The position numbers and the translations under genes were made by a program. A model generated the notes under the pieces. The model ran no database searches, was not told the DNA's origin, and was given only the letters and a program-made list of their open reading frames with translations. DNA of 64,000 nucleotides from Candidatus Sericytochromatia bacterium (GTDB taxonomy: Bacteria; Cyanobacteriota; Sericytochromatia; S15B-MN24; UBA4093), in NCBI GenBank assembly GCA_036676495.1, contig JAKFCT010000080.1, positions 89,277-153,276 on the forward strand, read 5' to 3'. Shown piece after piece: positions 1 to 11,479 of this stretch. Position 1 is the stretch's first letter, and each line of letters begins with the position of its first letter.

Positions 1-784
1 TGGCCTTGATCTGGCGGGTCTGTGGGTCGACCGAAGGGCTGACCTCGCGGATCTTGCCGGTGAAGATCTCCCCAGGGAAGGCGGCCGACTCGACCTGCAC
101 GGGAGCGCCGACCCTCAGGTGGGCCATCTCCTGCTCGGGCACGTTGACCTGCAGCTCCAGGGGGCCCGCCTCGGCGATGGTGAAGAGCGGGTTGCTGGGC
201 ATGGCCATGACGCCGATCTCGGCGGCCCGGTCGATCACGACGCCCGAGATGGGAGAGGTGACCGTGGCGTTCTCCCGCTGGGTTTCGAGCAGGCGAATGG
301 CGGCCTTGATCTGCTTGGTCTGAGCTTCCGCGACCTTTAGCTGGGTGAGAGCGCCCTCGTACTGCTGCTGGCTCACCGCGCCCTGGTCCACCAGGGTCCG
401 CATGCGATCCAGGTTGCTCTTGGCATTCTCGAGGTTGGCCTGAGCCGTGAGAAGGGAGGCCTTCTGCTGCTGCATCTGCCATTCCATCTCGGGGCTCTCG
501 ATCTGGGCGAGGGTCTGACCCGCCTTCACGGCGGATCCTTCGTCCACCATTACCGCGAGGACCCGCCCGGAGAGCTTGGGCAGGATCTTGACCTCGGAGC
601 GGGCGGCGATGTTGCCTTCGACCACCAGCGGCCGGGAGATCTGGCCCTGCTCCGCGGAGACGACGGCGACCGAGACGGCCTGCTCCTGCACCTTATCGGC
701 GTTCGAGTTTTTGGACTCCCCCTTTTGGCAACCGACGACGCCGATCACCAGCAGCGGGACGAGACCCCAAGCGATACGCTTCAC
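1..784 (-). CDS. RND efflux periplasmic adaptor (membrane fusion) lipoprotein; 3' end runs off the window
   Basis: Manual translation from GTG at 784 gives MKRIAWGLVPLLVIGVVGC (lipobox), then EVKILPKLSGRVLAVMVDEGSAVKAGQTLAQI, the HlyD/AcrA lipoyl-hairpin motif. GTGA overlap with the tolC-like stop. Absent from the ORF track because it is truncated. Confidence 0.9.
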   Translation of the reverse strand, partial: MKRIAWGLVPLLVIGVVGCQKGESKNSNADKVQEQAVSVAVVSAEQGQISRPLVVEGNIAARSEVKILPKLSGRVLAVMVDEGSAVKAGQTLAQIESPEMEWQMQQQKASLLTAQANLENAKSNLDRMRTLVDQGAVSQQQYEGALTQLKVAEAQTKQIKAAIRLLETQRENATVTSPISGVVIDRAAEIGVMAMPSNPLFTIAEAGPLELQVNVPEQEMAHLRVGAPVQVESAAFPGEIFTGKIREVSPSVDPQTRQIKA

Positions 785-2265
785 GACTCGCTTCCTTTCT
801 TGGCTAACACGGTTTGGAGCTCCAGACCGAGGGCCTGAGTCACCCGCAATTCCGCGGCTTGGACATCATACTGAGCCTGCACCAGATTGCTTTGCGCCTG
901 GGCAAGGGAGGTTTGGGCATCGATCACTTCGAGACCGGTGCCCACTCCGGCCTGAAACCGGACCTGGGCGAGACGGTAGCCTTCGGCGGCGGCGGCGACC
1001 CCTTGCTGGGCGATCGCCACCCGATCGACGGCCTCGGATCGCGCGGAGAGGGCGTTCTGGATGTCCAGCGCCACCTGCCGACGCACCGATTCCAGCTGCT
1101 GGCGATCCTTGGCGACTTCCGCCTCGGCCTGCGCGATCTTGGCCTGGGTCTGGTTGCCGTTGAGCAAGGTCCAGCTCATCGAGGCGCCCAGCAGGTAATA
1201 GCTGGACCCGCCGGGCTGGTACGAGTACTGCCCGATCCCCGCCACCGTGGGCAGGTAGGCCCGGCTCTGGAGGGTCACGTTGGTCTCGTCCATCTCCTGC
1301 TTGAGGCCCACCTGCTGGACTTCCAGGCGGCTGGCGATCGCCGTTTCATACGTCGCGGCGCTCACCTGAGCTCTTGGCAACGCCACGTTCCGCTCCAGCG
1401 GGACGTTCATGGCGGAGGTGCCCAGGGCCGTGCCCAGGGCGAGGCGCGCGAGCTCGACGCCGTTCTGGGCGCGCGAGAACTGGCCTTGCGTGTTGGCAAG
1501 CTGGGTCTGCGCCTGCAGGACCTCGAAACGGGTTCCGACGCCGCTGCGCTCCCGGATCTGCGCCTGCTCGACATGGGCGCGGGCCTGCTCCAGCGCCGCG
1601 CGCGAGACGTCCAGCAGGCTTTCGGCCCTGAGGACTCCGACGTAGGCGTTGGCGGCCTCGAACTGCGCCCGCCGGCGGGCGTTGACGATCTCGATGCGGG
1701 CCAGATCCAGGCTGACGTCGGCCATCTGGAGGCCGTCGCGGGTCCGGAAGGCATCGAACAAGACCTGGTTGGCGCTCAGCTGGACCTGGGCCATGGTGCT
1801 GCCACCCCCGCCGAGGCCGCCCAGCCCGCCGAGGCCTCCCAGGCCACCGAGCCCGCCGAGGCCGCCCAGGCTGCTCATGCCGCCGAGGCCTCCCATGCTC
1901 AGCATGTTGGCGCTGCCGCCGCTGCCGAGCATCTGGAAGCTGAAAGCGCTGGTGCTGAGGCTGAGCTGGGGGAAGGCTCCGCCCGTGAGCTCTCCGATGC
2001 GGGCTTCCGCCCCTTGCAGGCCGGCTTCCGCGGAGCGGACGGAGGGAGCGTTGATCTCGGCGATCCGGATGGCGTCGGCGAGGCTCATGCGCTCCTGGGC
2101 CAGCGCCGCGTCTCCCAGGGAGAGGACGCCGAGCGGGCTCAAACACAGAGCATCTAACAAAACCAGGCATGTTACGACCAGTGGCCGCCGACGGCGGCTC
2201 GAAGGAACAGTTTTGTCAGACGCTCTGAGGGCCGTGAGGCCCGAGAGGAGGATCCGTCGGGTCAT
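781..2265 (-). CDS. TolC-family outer membrane efflux protein
   Basis: OEP repeats (MSLADAIRIAEINAP; RFQAGVGTGLEVIDAQ; LVQAQYD), adjacent to the adaptor gene. Carries a (GGL)n insertion. True start may be downstream. Confidence 0.9.
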   Translation of the reverse strand: MTRRILLSGLTALRASDKTVPSSRRRRPLVVTCLVLLDALCLSPLGVLSLGDAALAQERMSLADAIRIAEINAPSVRSAEAGLQGAEARIGELTGGAFPQLSLSTSAFSFQMLGSGGSANMLSMGGLGGMSSLGGLGGLGGLGGLGGLGGLGGGGSTMAQVQLSANQVLFDAFRTRDGLQMADVSLDLARIEIVNARRRAQFEAANAYVGVLRAESLLDVSRAALEQARAHVEQAQIRERSGVGTRFEVLQAQTQLANTQGQFSRAQNGVELARLALGTALGTSAMNVPLERNVALPRAQVSAATYETAIASRLEVQQVGLKQEMDETNVTLQSRAYLPTVAGIGQYSYQPGGSSYYLLGASMSWTLLNGNQTQAKIAQAEAEVAKDRQQLESVRRQVALDIQNALSARSEAVDRVAIAQQGVAAAAEGYRLAQVRFQAGVGTGLEVIDAQTSLAQAQSNLVQAQYDVQAAELRVTQALGLELQTVLAKKGSES

Positions 2266-3290
2266 TTACCTTCCTCCGTGCGCTCGGGACGGTACGTGAC
2301 GCCGAGGCCCCAGATGTCCGAGGTCTCCTGGAAGCCGCCGTTGCTCCAGCGCTGGGTGGCGTAGCTCAGCTCCGCCCGGACCACGGGGGTCACGCGGAAG
2401 CCGATTCCCGCCTTCAGATCGACGCGCTGGGGCGAGCCGACGCCGTAGGGCGCGTTCTGGAGGGTGGTGGTGGTCCAGGGGTACCATGCGCCCTCGCCCA
2501 GCAGCTCGAACCGGCCCAGGGAGACGATCCCAGGGATGACGAGGCCGACGCCCCGGCGGGTGTGGGTGAAGTCGAGGACGGTCCCGGAGTAGGGGACGCC
2601 GGAGTTGCCGGCCGTGACGTTCTGCTGGAAGACCGAGAGGCTGGGTGCGATCTCCATGATCGGGTTGCTGAAGACGAGGCCGCCGCGCAGCTTCACGTCG
2701 GTCACCTCGGGGGTGGCGACCGAGGAGGAGGTCGTCGTGTTGGGCAGCGTCATCGGAACCTTGTAGCGGGAGGCTTCGAGGCCGATCAGGGCGTTGCCGG
2801 CGCGAAGCTGGCCATGGCCGAAGAGCGCATTGTCGATCCAGCCCTCGACGGCCTGGCTGCCCTGGCTCAGGCGCAGGTTCTGCAGCTGATAGGCGATGCC
2901 CACCTGGGTGTCCATGAGCGGGATCCGGGGGGTGACGCGCTCGGGCACGACCGGGGTGTAGGTCGGCTGATAGGTGGGGATCAGCTCGAGCTGGACGGGG
3001 CGGTTGAGGGCGTCGACGGGGACGATCTTGGACTGGTAGCCGACCGCGCTGAGCTCGACGGCGCGCCGGCCGTTGGCATCCAGCACGATCGTGAAGCGGC
3101 CCTGCTCATCGGTGAAGGCCGTGGCGAGCGAACCCTGCTGCTGGACGAAGACCTGCGAGAGGGGCTGGCCCTTCTCGCCGACGACGCGGCCGGCGGTCCG
3201 GGTCTGGGCGTCCGCGGGAGCCTGGAGCAGGATCGGGCTTGCGAGGGCCGACAGGAGGAGGGCGGCGGGGATGAAGCGATTTCCGTGCAT
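2262..3290 (-). CDS. Secreted protein with carboxypeptidase regulatory-like N-terminal domain and probable outer-membrane beta-barrel
   Basis: Signal peptide; GRVVGEKGQPL...TDEQGRF...SAVGY motif; amphipathic beta-strands ending WGLGVTYR. Confidence 0.7.
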   Translation of the reverse strand: MHGNRFIPAALLLSALASPILLQAPADAQTRTAGRVVGEKGQPLSQVFVQQQGSLATAFTDEQGRFTIVLDANGRRAVELSAVGYQSKIVPVDALNRPVQLELIPTYQPTYTPVVPERVTPRIPLMDTQVGIAYQLQNLRLSQGSQAVEGWIDNALFGHGQLRAGNALIGLEASRYKVPMTLPNTTTSSSVATPEVTDVKLRGGLVFSNPIMEIAPSLSVFQQNVTAGNSGVPYSGTVLDFTHTRRGVGLVIPGIVSLGRFELLGEGAWYPWTTTTLQNAPYGVGSPQRVDLKAGIGFRVTPVVRAELSYATQRWSNGGFQETSDIWGLGVTYRPERTEEGK

Positions 3291-3316
3291 GCGTGTTTGT
3301 CCTTACTGCGTCCGCG

Positions 3317-3718
3317 CTAGGGGGCCGACGTGATAGCGACCTTGACCACCTGGCTCTTGGAGCGGTCGAGGATGAAGACGAAATTCTGCGTGCCATTCAG
3401 ATCCGGATCCAGGCCCATGCCCTGGGGCACGGGGGCGGTGACGCCTTCGGCGGGAGCCGTGACCTTGGTCATGGGGACGGGGTTGCTGCCGAGGAGGATC
3501 TTCAGGCTGGAGGCCTGCTTCATCTCGTCCGTCAGGGTGGCCTGCGGGAAGAACAGGGTCATGGCCCCCGTCGGGGCGACGGTCAGCGTCGCGGGGACGG
3601 TGGAGATCTTGCTTTCCGTGGCCGGGTTGGCGATCAGCGAGGCCTGGGAGTCGCAGCCTGCCAGGAGCCCTGTAGAGACGAGGGCACCCGCGAGGAGGAG
3701 CGGTGCAATGCGTTTCAT
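3317..3718 (-). CDS. Small hypothetical lipoprotein (133 aa)
   Basis: Start reassigned to ATG 3718 (ATGA overlap with the merR stop); MKRIAPLLLAGALVSTGLLAGC lipobox. Confidence 0.75.
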   Translation of the reverse strand: MKRIAPLLLAGALVSTGLLAGCDSQASLIANPATESKISTVPATLTVAPTGAMTLFFPQATLTDEMKQASSLKILLGSNPVPMTKVTAPAEGVTAPVPQGMGLDPDLNGTQNFVFILDRSKSQVVKVAITSAP

Positions 3719-4527
3719 GATTTCTTCGCTTTCTGGGTGTTCTTGGCTACTGCCGTTTGGAACTCGTGTTCCCGCGTGAGGCGTTCCCCCACGGCGAGAT
3801 AGGCTTGATGGTAGATGATGCGCATCAGCTCCTGGCCCAGCTCGTTGAGGACCTTGACCTTGGAGGCTTGCTGCTGGGGCGGGATCTGGGTGTAAAGCTT
3901 GTCGAAGTAGTAGCGGTACTGCAATTCGACCAGTTGGTTGGTCAACTCGCAGGCTTCGCGGAAATCCTCGGGGGCGATCCCGTAGGGGGAGAGCTCCTGG
4001 AAAATTTCGGCGACCCGGAGGCCGTCCTCGTCGAAGCGGGGTTCGCCGCGCTGCGGCTCGCCGCTTTGCGGATCGCCGCCGTGCGACGCTTCGATGCAGG
4101 GGGGCGCGGGAGGGACGTGGACCGGGCGGAGGGCGCCGGCTTCCTGGAGGGCCGTCAGGGTCTGGGGGGAGAGGCCGGTCCGGGCGGCGAGCTCGTCCTG
4201 GGTCAGGGGCTCGAAGGTGGGGTCGTAGCGCAGCGGGCGGTAGAAGCTCTCGTTGAACTCGGCGATCGCCGCCAGCTCCTCGGTGGAGTGGACCGACTGG
4301 CAGAGCTTGCGAATCTTCTCCAGCGGCATGTAGCGCTGGGTCTGAAGCTGCTTGATGATCCGGATGCGGCTCAGGTCGTCCTCGGTGAAGACGCGATGTC
4401 CGCCGGGCGTTCGGCGCGAGGAAATCAGCCCCATCTTCTCCCAGAAGCGCAGGGTGGATTCCGTCACGTCGCAATCCGGATGGAGGAGGCGCACGACTTC
4501 GCCGATGGAGTACGTAATCTCAGCCAT
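3715..4527 (-). CDS. MerR-family transcriptional regulator with a second, degenerate HTH-like domain
   Basis: YSIGEV...TLRFWEKMGLI...RTPGGHRVFTEDDL; second region LTQDELAARTGLS...LQEAGAL. Confidence 0.9.
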   Translation of the reverse strand: MAEITYSIGEVVRLLHPDCDVTESTLRFWEKMGLISSRRTPGGHRVFTEDDLSRIRIIKQLQTQRYMPLEKIRKLCQSVHSTEELAAIAEFNESFYRPLRYDPTFEPLTQDELAARTGLSPQTLTALQEAGALRPVHVPPAPPCIEASHGGDPQSGEPQRGEPRFDEDGLRVAEIFQELSPYGIAPEDFREACELTNQLVELQYRYYFDKLYTQIPPQQQASKVKVLNELGQELMRIIYHQAYLAVGERLTREHEFQTAVAKNTQKAKKS

Positions 4528-6762: not shown

Positions 6763-7815
6763 CTACCCTACGAGAACTCCGCCCCCCAAGAGCAGGTCGC
6801 CCTGATAGAAGGCGGCGACCTGTCCCGGCGTGACCGCGAAGATCGGCTCCTCGAACTCCAAACGGACGCGATCCCCGTCCAGGGGCACGAGCTGGGCCGG
6901 CATCGCCGTGGAGCGGTAGCGCACTTGCGCCGAGACCCGCAGCGGCTCGCTGGGGCGGGCGATCGAGACCCAGCGGACGTCCCGGACCGTGGCGGCCTGG
7001 TCATGCGCGGCGTCGATCGGGCCCACGACCACGGTGTTGGTGGCGGCGTCGATGCGGACCACGTAGAGGGGATGCGGGTGCGCGATGCCGAGTCCGCGGC
7101 GCTGTCCGACGGTGTAGTAGGCGATGCCCTGGTGCTGGCCGAGCGTCTTGCCGGAGACGTCGACGATGGGCCCCGGAGCGAGCTGGGAGCCGATGCGATC
7201 CTCGAGGAACTTGCGGGTATCCCCTGCGGCGAAGCAAATGTCCTGGCTATCGGGTTTGCGAGAGACCTCGAGGCCGATGTCGCGGGCGATCGCCCGGACC
7301 TCTTCCTTGGTCTTGTCGCCCAGGGGGAAGAGGCAGCGTTCGAGCTGCTCCTGGCGCAGGCGGTAGAGCATGTAGGACTGGTCCTTGGTGGGATCCAGGC
7401 CGCGCAGCAGCTGCCAGCGGTTCGACTCGGGATCGAAACGGTTGCGGGCGTAGTGGCCCGAGGCGATGGCCTCCACGTCGTAGCGCCAGGCGGCTTCCTC
7501 GAAGAGCTCCTCGAAGCGGACCTCGGAGTTGCAGATGGTGCAGACGTTGGGGGTGATGCCTTGCTTGTAGCCTTCGGTGAAGGCGTCGATGACCTTTTCC
7601 TTGAAGGACTGCAGGACGTCGATGGTGTGGTAGGGGAAGCCGAGTTGCTTGGCGATGCGGGCGGCGTCGAAGACGGACTTCATGTCGCAGCAGCGCGATT
7701 CGGGGAAGTTGAGGGAGGTGACTCCCACCAGGTCGTACCCCTGGGATTGCAGTAGATAGGCGGCCACCCCGGAGTCGACTCCCCCGGAGAGGGCCATGGC
7801 CACGCGCTTTGGCAC
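6763..7815 (-). CDS. mnmA: tRNA 2-thiouridine(34) synthase
   Basis: SGGVDS PP-loop, TPNVCTICN, KDQSY, SQDICF, YTVGQRRG, TPGQ; start set at GTG 7815 after GGGAGGG. Confidence 0.95.
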   Translation of the reverse strand: MPKRVAMALSGGVDSGVAAYLLQSQGYDLVGVTSLNFPESRCCDMKSVFDAARIAKQLGFPYHTIDVLQSFKEKVIDAFTEGYKQGITPNVCTICNSEVRFEELFEEAAWRYDVEAIASGHYARNRFDPESNRWQLLRGLDPTKDQSYMLYRLRQEQLERCLFPLGDKTKEEVRAIARDIGLEVSRKPDSQDICFAAGDTRKFLEDRIGSQLAPGPIVDVSGKTLGQHQGIAYYTVGQRRGLGIAHPHPLYVVRIDAATNTVVVGPIDAAHDQAATVRDVRWVSIARPSEPLRVSAQVRYRSTAMPAQLVPLDGDRVRLEFEEPIFAVTPGQVAAFYQGDLLLGGGVLVG

Positions 7816-7872
7816 GGATCGTCCCTCCCTTTCACTGGAATGGTCCAGTTTACCGCGCATGGCCGCAACGCG

Positions 7873-7901
7873 AAAGGGCCGCCGGGAATTCCCGGCGGCC
7901 C
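7873..7901 (-). terminator. Intrinsic terminator of Tyr-rich lipoprotein 1
   Basis: Perfect palindrome GGGCCGCCGGGAATTCCCGGCGGCCC followed by TTT on the minus strand. Confidence 0.75.
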
Positions 7902-7914
7902 CAGCGCGTGGGAT

Positions 7915-8463
7915 CTAGTAGCCCCAACCGTAGGCGTACGGCCAGTAGTTGTAGCCGTAGCGGTAGAAGAACGGGTAGTAGGAGTACGAGTAGTAGGGAT
8001 AGTAGTACGGGTAGTAGAAGCCGGTGTTGTAGTAGTACGGGAAGTAGAAGTTACGGAACGGGAAGAACGAGAAGCTGCGGAAGCGGCTGCGGAAGAACGG
8101 CGAGAAGCCTCTGCGGAAGAAGAAGCGGCTGCGACGCCACTGCTGAATATCGGAGTCGGATCCCTGGTCCATGACTTCATTGGGATTGAGCTTGACGAGC
8201 ATCTTGGCGGCATCGGCTTCCGAGATGCGCGCGGGCAACTGCTTGCGGATTTCGTCGAAGCTCATGGCCTTGCCATCGACCATGATCTGGCGTTCACCGG
8301 AGACAAGGCTATCCGGGGCAGCGTCTCCACCGGGGACGCTCTGAGCTTGCGGGATCACGGCAGGAGCCTGGGTCGAGGCAATGGGCATGCTGCTCGAGCA
8401 GCCAAGGGTCCCACCGATCAGCCCTGTGGTCAAAGCTAGACCGAGCCATCGCTTCGCGCTCAT
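7915..8463 (-). CDS. Lipoprotein paralog 1: conserved N-domain plus Arg/Phe/Tyr-rich tail
   Basis: Lipobox TLGC; core IMVDGKAMSFDEIRKQLPARISEADAAKMLVKL; tail begins after DIQQ; GGAGGT RBS. Confidence 0.88.
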   Translation of the reverse strand: MSAKRWLGLALTTGLIGGTLGCSSSMPIASTQAPAVIPQAQSVPGGDAAPDSLVSGERQIMVDGKAMSFDEIRKQLPARISEADAAKMLVKLNPNEVMDQGSDSDIQQWRRSRFFFRRGFSPFFRSRFRSFSFFPFRNFYFPYYYNTGFYYPYYYPYYSYSYYPFFYRYGYNYWPYAYGWGY

Positions 8464-8551
8464 GCGATAAGTACCTCCCTTATCGGTCGCGGACGAGGTT
8501 TCGCCCGACTCCGGGCGCCGCCTTCGTGACGCGCCATCGACTACGCTTCAT

Positions 8552-8641
8552 AGGCTACCCTTGACCATGGATTCGGGCAACGCTCCCTCAGCTGGCCTGA
8601 AGGGGGGTGGGGCGGTCGCGCCAAACCCCTGCCGTTACGCC
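8552..8641 (-). promoter_or_regulatory. Promoter of paralog 1 (TTGCCC-17-TAGCCT) plus conserved upstream block
   Basis: Same -35/-10 pattern before all three paralogs; 8577-8641 matches 9579-9643 at 48/65 positions without gaps (hand count). Confidence 0.65.
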
Positions 8642-8762
8642 CCATGCTCCGATGACGCGGGGGCGTCGGCACGGGGGGCGGCCTTCCGTTCGGGCAGCGC
8701 CGACAAAAATCCTCGGCATCTTGGCCATGGGGGGGAGAGGCGCGCGGGAGGTGGAGAAACGG

Positions 8763-8795
8763 AAAAAGGGGTCGTCGGGATTTCCCGACGACCCC
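8763..8795 (-). terminator. Intrinsic terminator of paralog 2
   Basis: GGGGTCGTCGGGAAATCCCGACGACCCC hairpin followed by TTTTT on the minus strand. Confidence 0.85.
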
Positions 8796-8807
8796 AGGAC
8801 GTTTGGA

Positions 8808-9467
8808 TTACCAGCAGCCGCCGTAGCCGCCGAAGCCGCCGTAGCCCAAGCCGTAGCCGCCGTAGCCGCCGTAGCCCAGGCCGCCCAGGCCGCAACCGTA
8901 GGTATAGGGGAAGTAGCTGCCGCCGTAGCCGTAGAGGTAGGGCGAGCAGAGGGTGTTGGCGAAGTTGTAGGAGTACGGGTAGTAGTAGCCCGCGTTGTAG
9001 TAGTACGGGAAGTAGTAGCTGGAATAGGGGAAGAATCCGAGGCCGCCGAAGCCCAGACCGCGACCGAAGCCCAAGAAGCGACTGCGGAAGCCCAGGCCGC
9101 CGTGGAAGCCGCGCCCGATGAAGCCGCGACCGCCAAAGCGCCCGCGCCACTGCTGGGTATCGTAGTCACCGTCCTTGGCCACCTTATCCATGTCGAGCTT
9201 GACCAGCATCTTGGCGGCGTCGGCCGCGGAGATGCGGGCGGGCAACTGCTTGCGGATCTCTTCCATGGTCATCGCCTTGCCGTTGACCATGGTCTGGAAG
9301 TTATCGACCAAGAGCTGGTCGGGGGCGACATCGCCGTTCGCCACGGCTTGCACCTGCGGGATCTCGGGAGTTTGCGCGGCAGGGACGTTCGGAACGTTCT
9401 GCGCGCAACCGACCGTGCCCATGAGACTCGTTGCCAGGGCCAGGGTCAAAATCCGAGTCGCTTTCAT
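8808..9467 (-). CDS. Lipoprotein paralog 2 (219 aa): conserved N-domain plus Gly/Arg/Phe/Tyr-rich tail
   Basis: Start reassigned to ATG 9467 (AGGAGGT RBS); MKATRILTLALATSLMGTVGC lipobox; core EEIRKQLPARISAADAAKMLVKL; tail begins after DTQQ. Confidence 0.88.
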   Translation of the reverse strand: MKATRILTLALATSLMGTVGCAQNVPNVPAAQTPEIPQVQAVANGDVAPDQLLVDNFQTMVNGKAMTMEEIRKQLPARISAADAAKMLVKLDMDKVAKDGDYDTQQWRGRFGGRGFIGRGFHGGLGFRSRFLGFGRGLGFGGLGFFPYSSYYFPYYYNAGYYYPYSYNFANTLCSPYLYGYGGSYFPYTYGCGLGGLGYGGYGGYGLGYGGFGGYGGCW

Positions 9468-9552
9468 GCGGAGTGACCTCCTATTCTCACCTGTCGTCAC
9501 GGCGACCCCCCTATTGGTCTGTCGTCTTGACGAGCTGTCGCCTATGGGGCAT

Positions 9553-9643
9553 AAGGTAACGCCTCCCGTTGTCCTCCAGCAACGCCTACTCCGCTGGCTG
9601 GAACTCCCGGGGGACGGTCGGGCCCAACCCCTGCCGTCTCGCC
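9553..9643 (-). promoter_or_regulatory. Promoter of paralog 2 (TTGCTG-18-TACCTT) plus conserved upstream block
   Basis: Positional and sequence match to the element upstream of paralog 1. Confidence 0.65.
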
Positions 9644-9877
9644 ACGAGGGGGCGCGCGCCGTGCGCTCTGGCGAGCCGCCTAGCGGCAGTTGCGGGAGGG
9701 CCCGCCGAAAACGTTGGTCCGAAACGCCCCGGCGTCCAAGTAGTCGTCCTGCATCGAGGGCCCGTGGCCCTTTTGCTGGAAACTCGCGCCTGCCACGTGG
9801 CCGTCTTCCGAGCCCCCCCACGAAGGGCTGCGCCATGGCCACGGGGGCGACGCTCACGCGAAACGGCCCCCGAACGC

Positions 9878-9909
9878 AAAAGCACGGCGCCCCCGAAGGA
9901 GCGCCGTGC
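9878..9909 (-). terminator. Intrinsic terminator of paralog 3
   Basis: GCACGGCGCTCC-TTCG-GGGGCGCCGTGC hairpin followed by TTTT on the minus strand. Confidence 0.85.
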
Positions 9910-9921
9910 GAAGGGAGCGCT

Positions 9922-10497
9922 TTACCAGTAGTAGGAGTAGGGGTAGTAGTAGCCGCCGTAGCGGTACATGTACGGATAGTAGGAGTAGGAGTAGTAGGGA
10001 TAGGTGTACGGGTAGTAATAGCCCGCGTAGCGATAGTACGGGTAGTAGTACCCGCGGTGGCCGTAGTAGCGGAAGCGGCCGTAGCCATAGCGGCCGTAAC
10101 CATACCGGCCGTAGAAGCCCCGTCCGAAGCCCCGCGCGTAGCCCCGGCCGTAGAATCCGCGTCGGTAGCCCCGGCCGTATCTCTGCTGGACCTCGAGGCC
10201 CTTGTCTTCAACGATCTTCGAGGTGTCGATCTCGATCAGCAGCTTGGCGGCATCGGCTTCCGAGATGCGCGACGGCAACTCCTTTCGGATCTGCTCGACG
10301 TTCATCGGCTGTCCGTCCACCATGATCTGGCGATCATTCTGAATGTGTTGGTCAGGGGCGATGCTGCCTTCGCTGAGGTTTTGAACCTGGGGAACGTCGG
10401 CCGGCGTCTGGGCGCCCGGGATCGCCGGCGCGCAGCCCAGGGCGGTGCCCACCAAGGCCGTGCTCATCGCGATCCCTAGAGTCCGATTCACTCTCAT
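9922..10497 (-). CDS. Lipoprotein paralog 3: conserved N-domain plus Arg/Gly/Tyr-rich tail
   Basis: Lipobox ALGC; core IMVDGQPMNVEQIRKELPSRISEADAAKLLIEI; tail begins after EVQQ; AGGAGG RBS. Confidence 0.88.
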   Translation of the reverse strand: MRVNRTLGIAMSTALVGTALGCAPAIPGAQTPADVPQVQNLSEGSIAPDQHIQNDRQIMVDGQPMNVEQIRKELPSRISEADAAKLLIEIDTSKIVEDKGLEVQQRYGRGYRRGFYGRGYARGFGRGFYGRYGYGRYGYGRFRYYGHRGYYYPYYRYAGYYYPYTYPYYSYSYYPYMYRYGGYYYPYSYYW

Positions 10498-10562
10498 CAG
10501 GGGTTTCCCTCCTTAGATAAACCGCCAGCTGATGCGATGACGGTTGCGTGAACGCAGGGCAA

Positions 10563-10592
10563 AAGCTAACGCTTCTTCGGAGCCCAAGGCAA
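10563..10592 (-). promoter_or_regulatory. Promoter of paralog 3 (TTGCCT-18-TAGCTT)
   Basis: Same -35/-10 pattern as the other two paralogs. Confidence 0.55.
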
Positions 10593-10774
10593 CACTCACT
10601 TCATCGGCTGTGATCCCCTGCCCACGGGGAGTCGGAAGTCTCGCCCGGTCGCGCGCATGCCCCACGGCGCGGGGGCGGCCCGCCCATAGGGGCAAGAGGA
10701 TGTCATGGCGAGGTGCCAAAAAATCGGGTGGGCTTTCTCATGCGCTTGAGCGAACCCGCTGCTAGACTCTCGGT

Positions 10775-11479
10775 ATGAGCGACTTGCGTTGGAATCTCAC
10801 GCCCGCGGAGGCAATCGCCATGCAGCGCGAGCTCGCGGGGCGCGTGCGCTGCGAGGACGATTTCCCACCCCCGCGAACGGTCGCCGGAGTGGACGTCTCG
10901 ACCTCGCGCGGCTCCGAGGACGGCTTCGCGGCCATCGTCGTGCTGAGCTGGCCCGAGCTCGCCATCGTCGACAAGGCCCACGCCCGCATGCGCCTTCCCA
11001 TGCCCTATGTCCCAGGCCTCCTGTCCTTCCGGGAGGTTCCTTTGGCCCTCGCCGCCTACGCGCGCCTCACGGTCGCGCCCGACCTGATCATGGTCGACGG
11101 ACACGGTCGGGCTCACCCCCGCCGGGTCGGAGTTGCCTGCCACCTCGGCATTCTGCTGGACAAACCCACGCTCGGCTGCGCCAAGTCCATCCTGGTGGGC
11201 ACGCACGCCGACCTGGGACCCGAACGCGGAAACACGGCGCCCCTGCTCCACCGCTCCGAGGTGGTCGGGTACGCCGTGCGAACCAAAACCAAGGTCAATC
11301 CCGTTTTCGTCTCATGCGGGCACCGCCTCTCCCCGGAAACCGCCGTGCGCTGGGTCCTCGACTGTGCCCGCGGCTACCGCCTCCCCGAGCCGACCCGCCA
11401 GGCCCACCTCGCCTCCAACGCCTTTCGACTCAGCGAGGGGGAGTCGGAACCGGATTCCGGCCTGCCACCGACTCGATGA
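10775..11479 (+). CDS. nfi: Endonuclease V (canonical)
   Basis: VAGVDVS, PYVPGLLSFRE, MVDGHGRAHPRR, GCAKS, PEPTRQAH; all catalytic residues present. Confidence 0.93.
   Translation: MSDLRWNLTPAEAIAMQRELAGRVRCEDDFPPPRTVAGVDVSTSRGSEDGFAAIVVLSWPELAIVDKAHARMRLPMPYVPGLLSFREVPLALAAYARLTVAPDLIMVDGHGRAHPRRVGVACHLGILLDKPTLGCAKSILVGTHADLGPERGNTAPLLHRSEVVGYAVRTKTKVNPVFVSCGHRLSPETAVRWVLDCARGYRLPEPTRQAHLASNAFRLSEGESEPDSGLPPTR

Follow-up and report, generated by a model that had tools for sequence, protein, structure and literature searches.

The stretch of DNA considered here, called the window below, is a segment of 64,000 nucleotides (nt) from a genome of Candidatus Sericytochromatia (GenBank assembly GCA_036676495.1, contig JAKFCT010000080.1, positions 89,277 to 153,276). 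As read from open reading frames (ORFs) and their translations, its interval 7915-10497 is occupied by three minus-strand ORFs that encode paralogous lipoproteins, named P1, P2 and P3. In each of them a conserved N-terminal core is followed by a cationic loop and a tyrosine-rich block, and our analysis suggests that core and block probably belong to a single lipid-anchored domain. The three genes are the following:

7915-8463, minus strand: P1 gene, 182-amino-acid (aa) lipoprotein, stop codon at 7915-7917 (ORF, translation, GGAGG upstream)
8808-9467, minus strand: P2 gene, 219-aa lipoprotein, stop codon at 8808-8810 (ORF, translation)
9922-10497, minus strand: P3 gene, 191-aa lipoprotein, stop codon at 9922-9924 (ORF, translation)

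P2 is 54% and P3 47% identical to P1, which is also the best family match in its own genome. The real ATG of P2 sits within a longer open frame of 467 aa, which was rejected as a high-GC artefact.

The three proteins share a common layout made of a signal peptide, a linker rich in Pro, Ala, Thr and Gln, a core motif, an acidic stretch and a Gln-Gln pair (QQ). The signal peptides end in G-C, with the cysteine at position 22 in P1, 21 in P2 and 22 in P3, and QQ lies at residues 107-108, 105-106 and 104-105, respectively. The parts are placed on the DNA as follows:

8398-8463, minus strand: P1 signal peptide and lipobox, residues 1-22, with Cys22 (read from the translation; G21 and C22 invariant in 33 relatives)
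8296-8397, minus strand: P1 Pro/Ala/Thr/Gln tether, residues 23-56 (mostly of low confidence in AlphaFold2)
8140-8295, minus strand: P1 core, residues 57-108, with beta-hairpin, two helices, acidic stretch and QQ (AlphaFold2, conservation)
8068-8139, minus strand: P1 Arg/Phe/Ser loop, residues 109-132 (AlphaFold2)
7918-8067, minus strand: P1 Tyr/Pro block, residues 133-182, with five aromatic-aromatic-Pro-aromatic repeats (AlphaFold2 beta-meander, conservation)
9150-9305, minus strand: P2 core, residues 55-106, with QQ at its end (alignment with P1 and P3)
9036-9149, minus strand: P2 Arg/Gly/Phe loop, residues 107-144 (translation)
8895-9035, minus strand: P2 Tyr/Pro block, residues 145-191 (alignment)
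8811-8894, minus strand: Gly/Tyr extension at the C-terminus of P2, residues 192-219 (encoded by 6.4 copies of a 9-bp tandem repeat, 8816-8876)
10183-10335, minus strand: P3 core, residues 55-105, with QQ at its end (AlphaFold2)
10069-10182, minus strand: P3 Arg/Gly/Tyr loop, residues 106-143 (AlphaFold2; 12- and 15-bp DNA tandem repeats)
9925-10068, minus strand: P3 Tyr/Pro block, residues 144-191 (AlphaFold2 six-strand meander; 24 Tyr in 40 residues)

The part after QQ, or tail, is 74 aa long in P1 (21 Tyr, 16 Phe, 10 Arg, 7 Ser, 7 Pro and 5 Gly, among others), 113 aa in P2 (37 Gly, 22 Tyr, 13 Phe, 9 Leu and 7 Arg, among others) and 86 aa in P3 (36 Tyr, 18 Gly and 14 Arg, among others). Asp, Glu and Lys are entirely missing from all three tails, and His occurs at most once in each. 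The net charge runs from -4 to -7 in the N-terminal parts and from +7 to +14 in the tails. The original prediction, made from the letters of the window, had described three paralogs with lipobox, Pro-rich linker, core, acidic stretch and QQ in this interval, tails free of Asp, Glu and Lys, and, by hand count, 36 Tyr in the tail of P3; the translations agree with the description, and the count is exact. Tyr makes up 1.1% of the open frames of at least 300 aa in the window. Since the only three stretches of 40 aa with at least 10 Tyr in its six frames all lie in P1-P3, the enrichment is not due to chance.

Relatives of the three proteins were collected by profile searches. Among 1.84 billion representative proteins, 109 match at E<=1e-3, a number that falls to 78 at E<=1e-10 and to 14 at E<=1e-30; nearly all of the 109 match over both halves, and every relative is named "hypothetical protein" in its source. 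Four of these matches were dropped (P0133, which is a DUF4352 protein, and P0135, P0136 and P0137, which are Gly/Tyr-rich and lack the core motif). Two sets were used for conservation: a close set of 33 sequences, and a wider family alignment of 134 composed of the three window proteins, 30 other relatives and 101 further representatives. Unless the close set is named, counts below refer to the 134.

A species-level genome collection gave two matches, both of them Candidatus Sericytochromatia metagenome-assembled genomes (MAGs). Genome profiling covered Cyanobacteriota. Within the class, 24 of 47 genomes match the family profile at E<=1e-3, distributed over the taxonomic families f1 to f7 as 9/9, 7/8, 1/1, 5/8, 0/1, 1/6 and 0/13; the lone f6 match spans the signal and tether region only. 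Of 401 genomes sampled from the phylum, 21 give a match at E<=1e-5; these belong without exception to f1-f4 of one order, and the remaining 380 are without a match. Among the genomes searched the family is found only in one Sericytochromatia order and in metagenomes. One relative comes from a contig of 5 kb whose label assigns it to a Bacteroidota MAG.

Conservation across the family does not follow a division into a constant leader and a variable tail. The lipobox Cys is conserved in at least 90% of the sequences and the signal peptide ends in G-C; the tether has a median of 26 residues (18% Ala, 14% Pro, 11% Thr and 10% Gln). In the core, by P1 numbering, conservation reaches 87% at L76, 98% at P77, 85% at A85, 96% at L89, 75% at V90 and 74% at D93. 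The junction has the consensus Y-S-V-Q-Q, with V, L, T or I at the aliphatic position in 90% of the sequences. The loop is 4-81 residues long (median 35) and is composed of 30% Gly, 15% Arg, 12% Phe and 9% Tyr, with Phe, Tyr and Trp together at 24% and Asp, Glu and Lys at 2.1%; it is net positive in 120 of the 134 proteins, has at least four Arg in 88 and at least four His in 14. These 14, which include P0051, P0069, P0071, P0091, P0094, P0096 and P0099, have a loop composition typical of metal-binding segments, and in some of them long His/Gly(/Trp) runs replace the Arg/Gly type.

The block that follows measures about 46 residues, with 36% Tyr, 10.6% Pro, 10% Gly and 1.2% Asp, Glu and Lys, and is built of about five aromatic-aromatic-Pro-aromatic repeats placed 7-12 residues apart. 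The Pro of the repeat is conserved in 87-99% of the sequences in four repeats and in 58% in the weaker first one. Single positions are equally marked (P142 99%, Y143 93%, Y150 85%, P152 87%, Y153 85%, P164 93%, P175 87%), and P142, Y143, Y167 and P175 are invariant in the 33 close relatives. Gaps in the block cluster at a single turn (profile positions 168-171), and 80 of the 134 proteins have no Asp, Glu or Lys in loop and block together. Comparison with orthologs from the same genus gives for the core a ratio of nonsynonymous (dN) to synonymous (dS) substitution of 0.13-0.38; for P2, dN is lowest in the block (0.059-0.065) against 0.108-0.174 in the core, and the loop shows 14-18 indel columns relative to the orthologs in two same-genus genomes. 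Judged from these alignments, the Tyr/Pro block is as strongly conserved as the core, and only the Gly/Arg/aromatic loop varies.

Core and block co-occur in 122 of the 134 sequences, the other 12 being truncated fragments or partial alignments. A C-terminal continuation of more than 20 aa beyond the block is present in 46 and consists of Gly/Tyr-rich, Pro/Gln-rich or "VTVPRTV"-like additions; the "VTVPRTV"-like repeats, seen in P0097, P0128 and P0134, have no Pfam match. Five proteins (P0046, P0077, P0079, P0090 and P0123) carry a C-terminal cupredoxin of plastocyanin/azurin type above the Pfam cut-off, and in P0126 the cupredoxin falls just below it (19.8 against 21.2 bits).

The structure of the module was predicted in two AlphaFold2 runs, one for P1 with an alignment of 33 rows and one for P3 with an alignment of 134 rows. 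The P1 model has a mean predicted local distance difference test score (pLDDT) of 72.4 and a predicted template modelling score (pTM) of 0.67; the corresponding values for P3 are 71.5 and 0.63. In P1 the region of the tether has pLDDT below 50 at residues 13-31 and block means of 72-75 at 31-60. The core is modelled as two strands (59-62 and 65-68) and two helices (69-75 and 82-88) with pLDDT 73-93 in P1, and as strands 57-60 and 63-66 and helices 67-73 and 80-86 with pLDDT 81-95 in P3. The loop region of P1 falls below 50 at 101-114 and then has block means of 51 and 70 at 115-132, with a short strand and a helix, and that of P3 is below 50 at 107-125 with block means of 45-65 up to residue 140. 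The Tyr/Pro block is modelled as a beta-meander in P1 (pLDDT 83-93) and as a six-strand meander in P3 (pLDDT 89-96). The topology is the same in both models, despite different paralogs and alignments: short strands of 3-10 residues form a six-strand open sheet backed by helices.

With some 40% of the chain disordered, pTM values of 0.63-0.67 suggest that the models treat core and block as a single rigid body. Packing of the sheet on the core would also fit the hydrophobic character of the conserved core residues and the small size of the 45-residue hairpin/two-helix unit. Within the block, mutual information peaks at pairs i to i+6..10, as hairpins would give.

On these grounds we propose that P1-P3 are lipoproteins with one lipid-anchored alpha+beta domain, split by a cationic disordered loop, that serves as a non-enzymatic module of the cell envelope. 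The proposal as a whole has, in our judgement, an even chance of being right; the single-domain architecture, taken by itself, is probable. Each protein would be processed as a signal-peptidase-II lipoprotein and lipidated at its Cys, and a flexible linker of about 30 residues would tether the domain to the periplasmic face of a membrane, probably the cytoplasmic membrane, since no LolA was found. The hairpin and two helices of the N-terminal half would pack on an antiparallel sheet made of about five aromatic-aromatic-Pro-aromatic repeats, and the disordered, indel-prone Gly/Arg/aromatic loop would interrupt the domain just after (Y)SVQQ. The Tyr-covered face of the sheet and the cationic "sticker and spacer" loop may then engage in multivalent binding to an anionic envelope component, such as the membrane surface, peptidoglycan or a polysaccharide, or to one another, and in some relatives the module may act as a base near the membrane that carries a passenger domain, for example a cupredoxin. 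The Tyr face, the adjacent Arg/Gly/aromatic loop, the proximity to the membrane and the passenger of some relatives together point to binding or cohesion, and this specific role, a non-enzymatic binding/cohesion module read from composition, is put forward tentatively, as possible but doubtful.

Several observations weigh against this proposal. Pairs between core and block are not enriched in mutual information (4 of the top 40, where 12.7 would be expected at random). The fold is a prediction on a very biased sequence, with no similar solved structure to serve as an anchor: Foldseek against the Protein Data Bank (PDB) retrieved no structure at E<=0.001 with either model, and in the VIA wide search the best Z values were 3.0 and 3.5, far below the noise level of that tool (typical best Z 7-8). 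The putative binding or cohesive role is read from composition, and the gene neighbours are heterogeneous from one locus to another. Since there is neither a similar solved structure nor an enrichment of core-block mutual information, the fold is regarded as a consistent prediction, not as a demonstrated fact.

A bolder form of the proposal holds that the fold is new, with a sheet that consists almost entirely of Tyr/Pro repeats and is clamped by the small helical N-terminal segment, and that modules present at high density form a cohesive, condensate- or gel-like periplasmic layer, or latch onto an anionic envelope polymer. The R/F/S, R/G/F and R/G/Y loops of the three paralogs would then tune the material properties, and the family would be an exported, lipid-anchored bacterial counterpart of the eukaryotic Arg/Tyr phase-separating domains. 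We consider this form rather improbable.

The main rival supposes that the models are wrong and that the whole region after QQ is disordered, low-complexity adhesive, coat or condensate material, displayed on the lipid anchor and possibly hardened by cross-links between Tyr. The extreme composition of block and loop is what would be expected of such material, the loop being similar to sticker-spacer domains; moreover, the DNA of the loop and of the P2 extension contains tandem repeats and indels, no solved fold matches the models, and sporadic weak Pfam matches to lamprin, keratin head and a glycine-rich protein family occur, in one member each of the 134. In P1 the loop DNA contains short tandem repeats with a period of 12-24. 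The block itself behaves differently. Its Pro, Tyr and Gly hold fixed positions at low dN, which argues against this rival because a free low-complexity sequence would drift in register; its indels are confined to one turn, its pLDDT is about 90 in two AlphaFold2 runs, and no oxidase or peroxidase adjoins the genes in 17 loci. All considered, we think low-complexity material unlikely, though it is the alternative to be taken most seriously.

The original prediction had inferred an N-domain that escorts a tail, either cleaved at QQ or displayed, with an antimicrobial, adhesive or coat function. The displayed form, as adhesive or coat material, is possible; the cleaved form supposes a pro-region followed by a cationic aromatic peptide, antimicrobial or signalling, that would be released at QQ. 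The prediction had called the tails variable, which holds for the Arg/Gly/aromatic stretch, different in each copy, and fails for the Tyr/Pro block, which aligns across the paralogs and is conserved; it had called QQ invariant, which is so in the three paralogs and nearly so in the close relatives (30 of 33), whereas in the wider family Gln occupies the first of the two positions in 67% of the sequences and the second in 46%. A cleaved peptide would suit the anionic N-part followed by a cationic tail and the recurrence of QQ, and the junction, which both models place in a region of low confidence, would be accessible to a protease. However, the supposed cargo is as conserved as its leader and co-occurs with it, it is internal in the 46 proteins that extend beyond the block, some of them into a cupredoxin, and AlphaFold2 models it as an ordered sheet in one compact model with the core. 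There is no match to cathelin or to another precursor family, and no conserved protease, transporter, immunity or modifying gene nearby. The division into constant pro-domain and QQ-cleaved cargo is therefore not supported, and the peptide interpretation is very unlikely. Other statements of the same prediction were borne out: the proteins form a paralog family predicted to be lipid-anchored, as the conserved lipobox Cys and the presence of Lgt and LspA in the genome indicate; no modifying enzyme or protease is adjacent, in the window or at 16 related loci; and the core matches no characterised family in Pfam, NCBIfam or a PDB profile search.

It could also be imagined that the module binds metal, or relays electrons or holes, in partnership with cupredoxins. 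Five C-terminal cupredoxins at the Pfam cut-off with a sixth just below it, the 14 loops with at least four His, and the thought that dense Tyr arrays could in principle relay holes speak for such a copper or redox module, but the P1-P3 tails are almost free of His and end without a cupredoxin, the fusions amount to 6 of 134, and no copper or cytochrome genes are linked, so that it is highly improbable. Scarcely credible, finally, is an outer-membrane element, either an oligomeric beta-barrel or a mimic of the C-terminal beta-signal that docks on BamA: 78 of the 134 proteins end in W, Y or F, aromatic residues alternate near the C-terminus and Omp85 is encoded in the genome, but an aromatic end and alternation are trivially expected at 36% Tyr, the models are two-layer alpha+beta structures without a barrel and with strands of only 3-10 residues, 46 proteins carry long hydrophilic extensions after the block, and no LolA was found for outward lipoprotein transport.

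The history of the triplet can be followed in the tree of its relatives. P1 belongs to a clade of 8 rows (support 100/99), P2 to a clade of 9 (100/99), and P3 to a clade of 5 (98/92) inside a clade of 13 (95/91). Each paralog thus clusters with proteins from other samples, and a fourth clade has no member in the window. Related genomes hold one or two of the three types; within the same genus, G018 has a P2-type and a P1-type gene, and G017 a P2-type gene only. Because the clades are separate and related genomes have fewer types, the duplication is judged to be old, copies have been lost, and an obligate three-part complex is unlikely. At the DNA level P1 and the P2 core (repeat family D3) share 85% identity over 103 nt. 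The orthologs in G017 and G018 lack the Gly/Tyr extension of P2 (21-22 gap columns), and the extension looks like a recent repeat expansion.

A fourth, divergent paralog of 433 aa is encoded about 7 kb before the window (L034 2821-4122, plus strand; about 81821-83122 on the contig). Its sequence runs from a lipobox through a degenerate core and a Tyr/Pro block to four "DRPGNHGNRPGPDWN"-like repeats, and ends in a long tail rich in Arg, Asp, Glu, Gly and His.

A GGAGG-type Shine-Dalgarno sequence precedes each of P1, P2 and P3, and the genes are separated by gaps of 344 and 454 bp. The other signals recognised around them are these:

7875-7902, minus strand: GC-rich hairpin 3' of P1, with a 4-nt loop closed by a 12-bp stem and a weak T tail after it (predicted folding energy -40.6 kcal/mol, z -3.8)
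8768-8795, minus strand: intrinsic terminator-like hairpin 3' of P2 (12-pair stem with 10 GC pairs, TTTTT tail)
9882-9909, minus strand: intrinsic terminator-like hairpin 3' of P3 (12-pair stem with 10 GC pairs, TTTT tail)
8552-8581, minus strand: promoter-like motif of P1 (TTGCCC, 17 nt, TAGCCT; pattern match)
9553-9583, minus strand: promoter-like motif of P2 (pattern match)
10563-10593, minus strand: promoter-like motif of P3 (pattern match)

For the P1 hairpin, none of 200 shuffled sequences folds as well. The hairpins 3' of the three genes are closely alike: in each, a GC-rich stem of 12 bp closes a loop of 4 nt. Since every gene has its own ribosome-binding site and its own hairpin of this type, and since the genes are spaced apart as stated, each of the three looks like a transcription unit of its own. 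An Rfam scan of 7700-10900 gave nothing at gathering scores, and its sub-threshold small-RNA matches fall on the terminator hairpins; BjrC68 touches two of the three, probably just because they are terminator-like. No site was found in a scan for the sigma-70 consensus. The promoter-like motif, which is weak (TTGCYN, 17-18 nt, TA(G/C)CYT), lies 58-80 nt 5' of each start codon and has three matches in the window, one per paralog and none elsewhere, where 0.03 would be expected; the pattern was built by aligning these same upstream regions, so that the count is not an independent test, and related genomes do not show the motif at their orthologous loci, for which reasons we mention it as a side remark only. 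A stretch of 65 nt upstream of P1 (8577-8641) and P2 (9579-9643) is 74% identical (DNA repeat family D5). Among sequencing runs no RNA run containing the triplet is listed, and the sole full match is a soil-metagenome DNA run, from which the window itself may derive.

The neighbours of the triplet in the window are mnmA, a NUDIX gene, an endonuclease V gene, which is divergent from P3, and genes for a BON/SRPBCC protein, a major facilitator superfamily transporter and a TolC-like protein; mnmA (6763-7860) is on the same strand, 54 bp downstream of P1. Further along the minus strand, the region 781-4474 encodes a TolC-like outer-membrane efflux protein (781-2265), a carboxypeptidase-regulatory-like domain protein (2262-3290) and a 385-aa ORF (3317-4474) without Pfam match, in an order that is kept in two same-genus genomes. 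The linkage to mnmA and NUDIX persists at 7 loci, all of family f1, and at ten loci of other families the flanking genes are mutually unrelated. At these ten the flanks include M17 and M16 peptidases, a kinase, ATP-binding cassette transporters, a pyridoxal-phosphate decarboxylase, a PDZ/radical-SAM-like protein, a CAAX protease, NAGPA and nitronate monooxygenase. In two other genera a patatin-like phospholipase gene lies divergently upstream (L024 7520-8812, minus strand; L020 10653-12092, plus strand). Frames of 641 aa in L024 and L025 were rejected as high-GC artefacts, the real upstream gene there being the patatin-like gene on the opposite strand. No conserved maturation, export, immunity, protease or modifying gene was found in the window or at the 16 related loci.

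The assembly that contains the window measures 4.1 Mb in 106 contigs and is 92% complete. It encodes Lgt (293 bits), two copies of LspA (127-128 bits) and Omp85, from which the host is judged to be a diderm able to mature lipoproteins. LolA gave no Pfam match in this 92%-complete genome, nor in a Synechococcus control genome.

Sericytochromatia, which are not photosynthetic, are an uncultured group sister to the photosynthetic cyanobacteria. Should the predicted fold prove real, the module would be a marker of this lineage and probably an abundant component of its envelope. It would also be an unusual protein design, a sheet that is one-third Tyr with a Pro fixed within each strand, relevant to structure and design. 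The Arg/Gly/aromatic loop offers a natural test of extracytoplasmic sticker-spacer chemistry in bacteria, and the triplet genes can be taken off the list of likely antimicrobial-peptide precursors.

Known families and systems resemble P1-P3 in part only. At curated cut-offs Pfam and NCBIfam give nothing on the three proteins, and on the 134 members Pfam gives only the C-terminal cupredoxins and single low-complexity matches. A profile search against PDB sequences had its best hit in KCMF1, over tether and core (E 0.0079), which was judged spurious. The ESM Atlas search matched no named cluster (best score 0.82), and a full-text literature search found no description of such a family. ExbD/TolR (PF02472) gives a weak local match, below its cut-off, to the hairpin-helix region of P3 at residues 51-93 (E 0.016, 15.7 bits against a cut-off of 25.4 bits) and leaves P1 and P2 unmatched. 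None of the 134 members matches it at E<=0.01, and ExbD/TolR chains are absent from the VIA listing at Z>=2 for both models, an absence that does not exclude kinship.

Among folds with helices on one face of an antiparallel sheet, RelE/ParE-like and RNase T1-like structures occupy the top VIA rows (root-mean-square deviation 2.8-4.1 A over 69-72 residues, identity 1-14%); kinship was rejected, as what is shared is a common arrangement at a Z far below noise. The models also lack the at least eight spanning strands of an outer-membrane beta-barrel.

Cathelicidin precursors and those of ribosomally synthesized and post-translationally modified peptides (RiPPs) likewise have an anionic conserved N-part, a cationic part and a short boundary motif, but here the C-terminal part is conserved and predicted to be folded, and the boundary motif is conserved to 46-67%. 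The marks of a RiPP, which are an adjacent maturation gene, a hypervariable core peptide and a near-invariant cleavage motif, are all absent. For a cathelin-like pro-domain, no Pfam family matches the N-part of P1-P3 at E<=1 apart from sub-threshold DUF4424 and ExbD, and none of the 134 members has one.

The Bacillus spore-coat proteins CotC and CotU are Tyr-rich, but also rich in Lys and Asp, and are not known to have a lipobox. They and P1-P3 are alike in being coat or envelope proteins in which Tyr is extremely frequent, whereas here Lys, Asp and Glu are nearly absent from the Tyr region and there is no match to a Pfam family.

The loop is similar in composition and predicted disorder to the RGG/Tyr sticker-spacer domains of the FUS type, for which Arg-Tyr cation-pi contacts in FUS are reported (PMC5927716). 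The resemblance is one of composition, not of homology, and here the sticker-spacer segment is a short loop inside the predicted folded domain of an exported bacterial lipoprotein.

A further parallel is with ordinary lipoproteins. The signal of a lipoprotein consists of a positive n-region, a hydrophobic h-region and a lipobox that ends in an invariant Cys, and P1-P3 have K or R within the first five residues and a hydrophobic stretch ending in (T/A)(L/V)GC. With generic signal-peptidase-II lipoproteins they share the lipobox Cys and the flexible Pro/Ala-rich tether. The lipid-modified azurin Laz of Neisseria is a lipoprotein with a cupredoxin passenger, and the 5-6 relatives with a C-terminal cupredoxin are comparable to it, whereas P1-P3 have no passenger domain, neither PF00127 nor PF13473 being present. 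What generic lipoproteins have no counterpart for is the alpha+beta module with its Tyr/Pro repeats between tether and passenger. This module is without a relative in Pfam, NCBIfam or the PDB, and the proteins that carry it constitute an undescribed family set in an ordinary lipoprotein frame.

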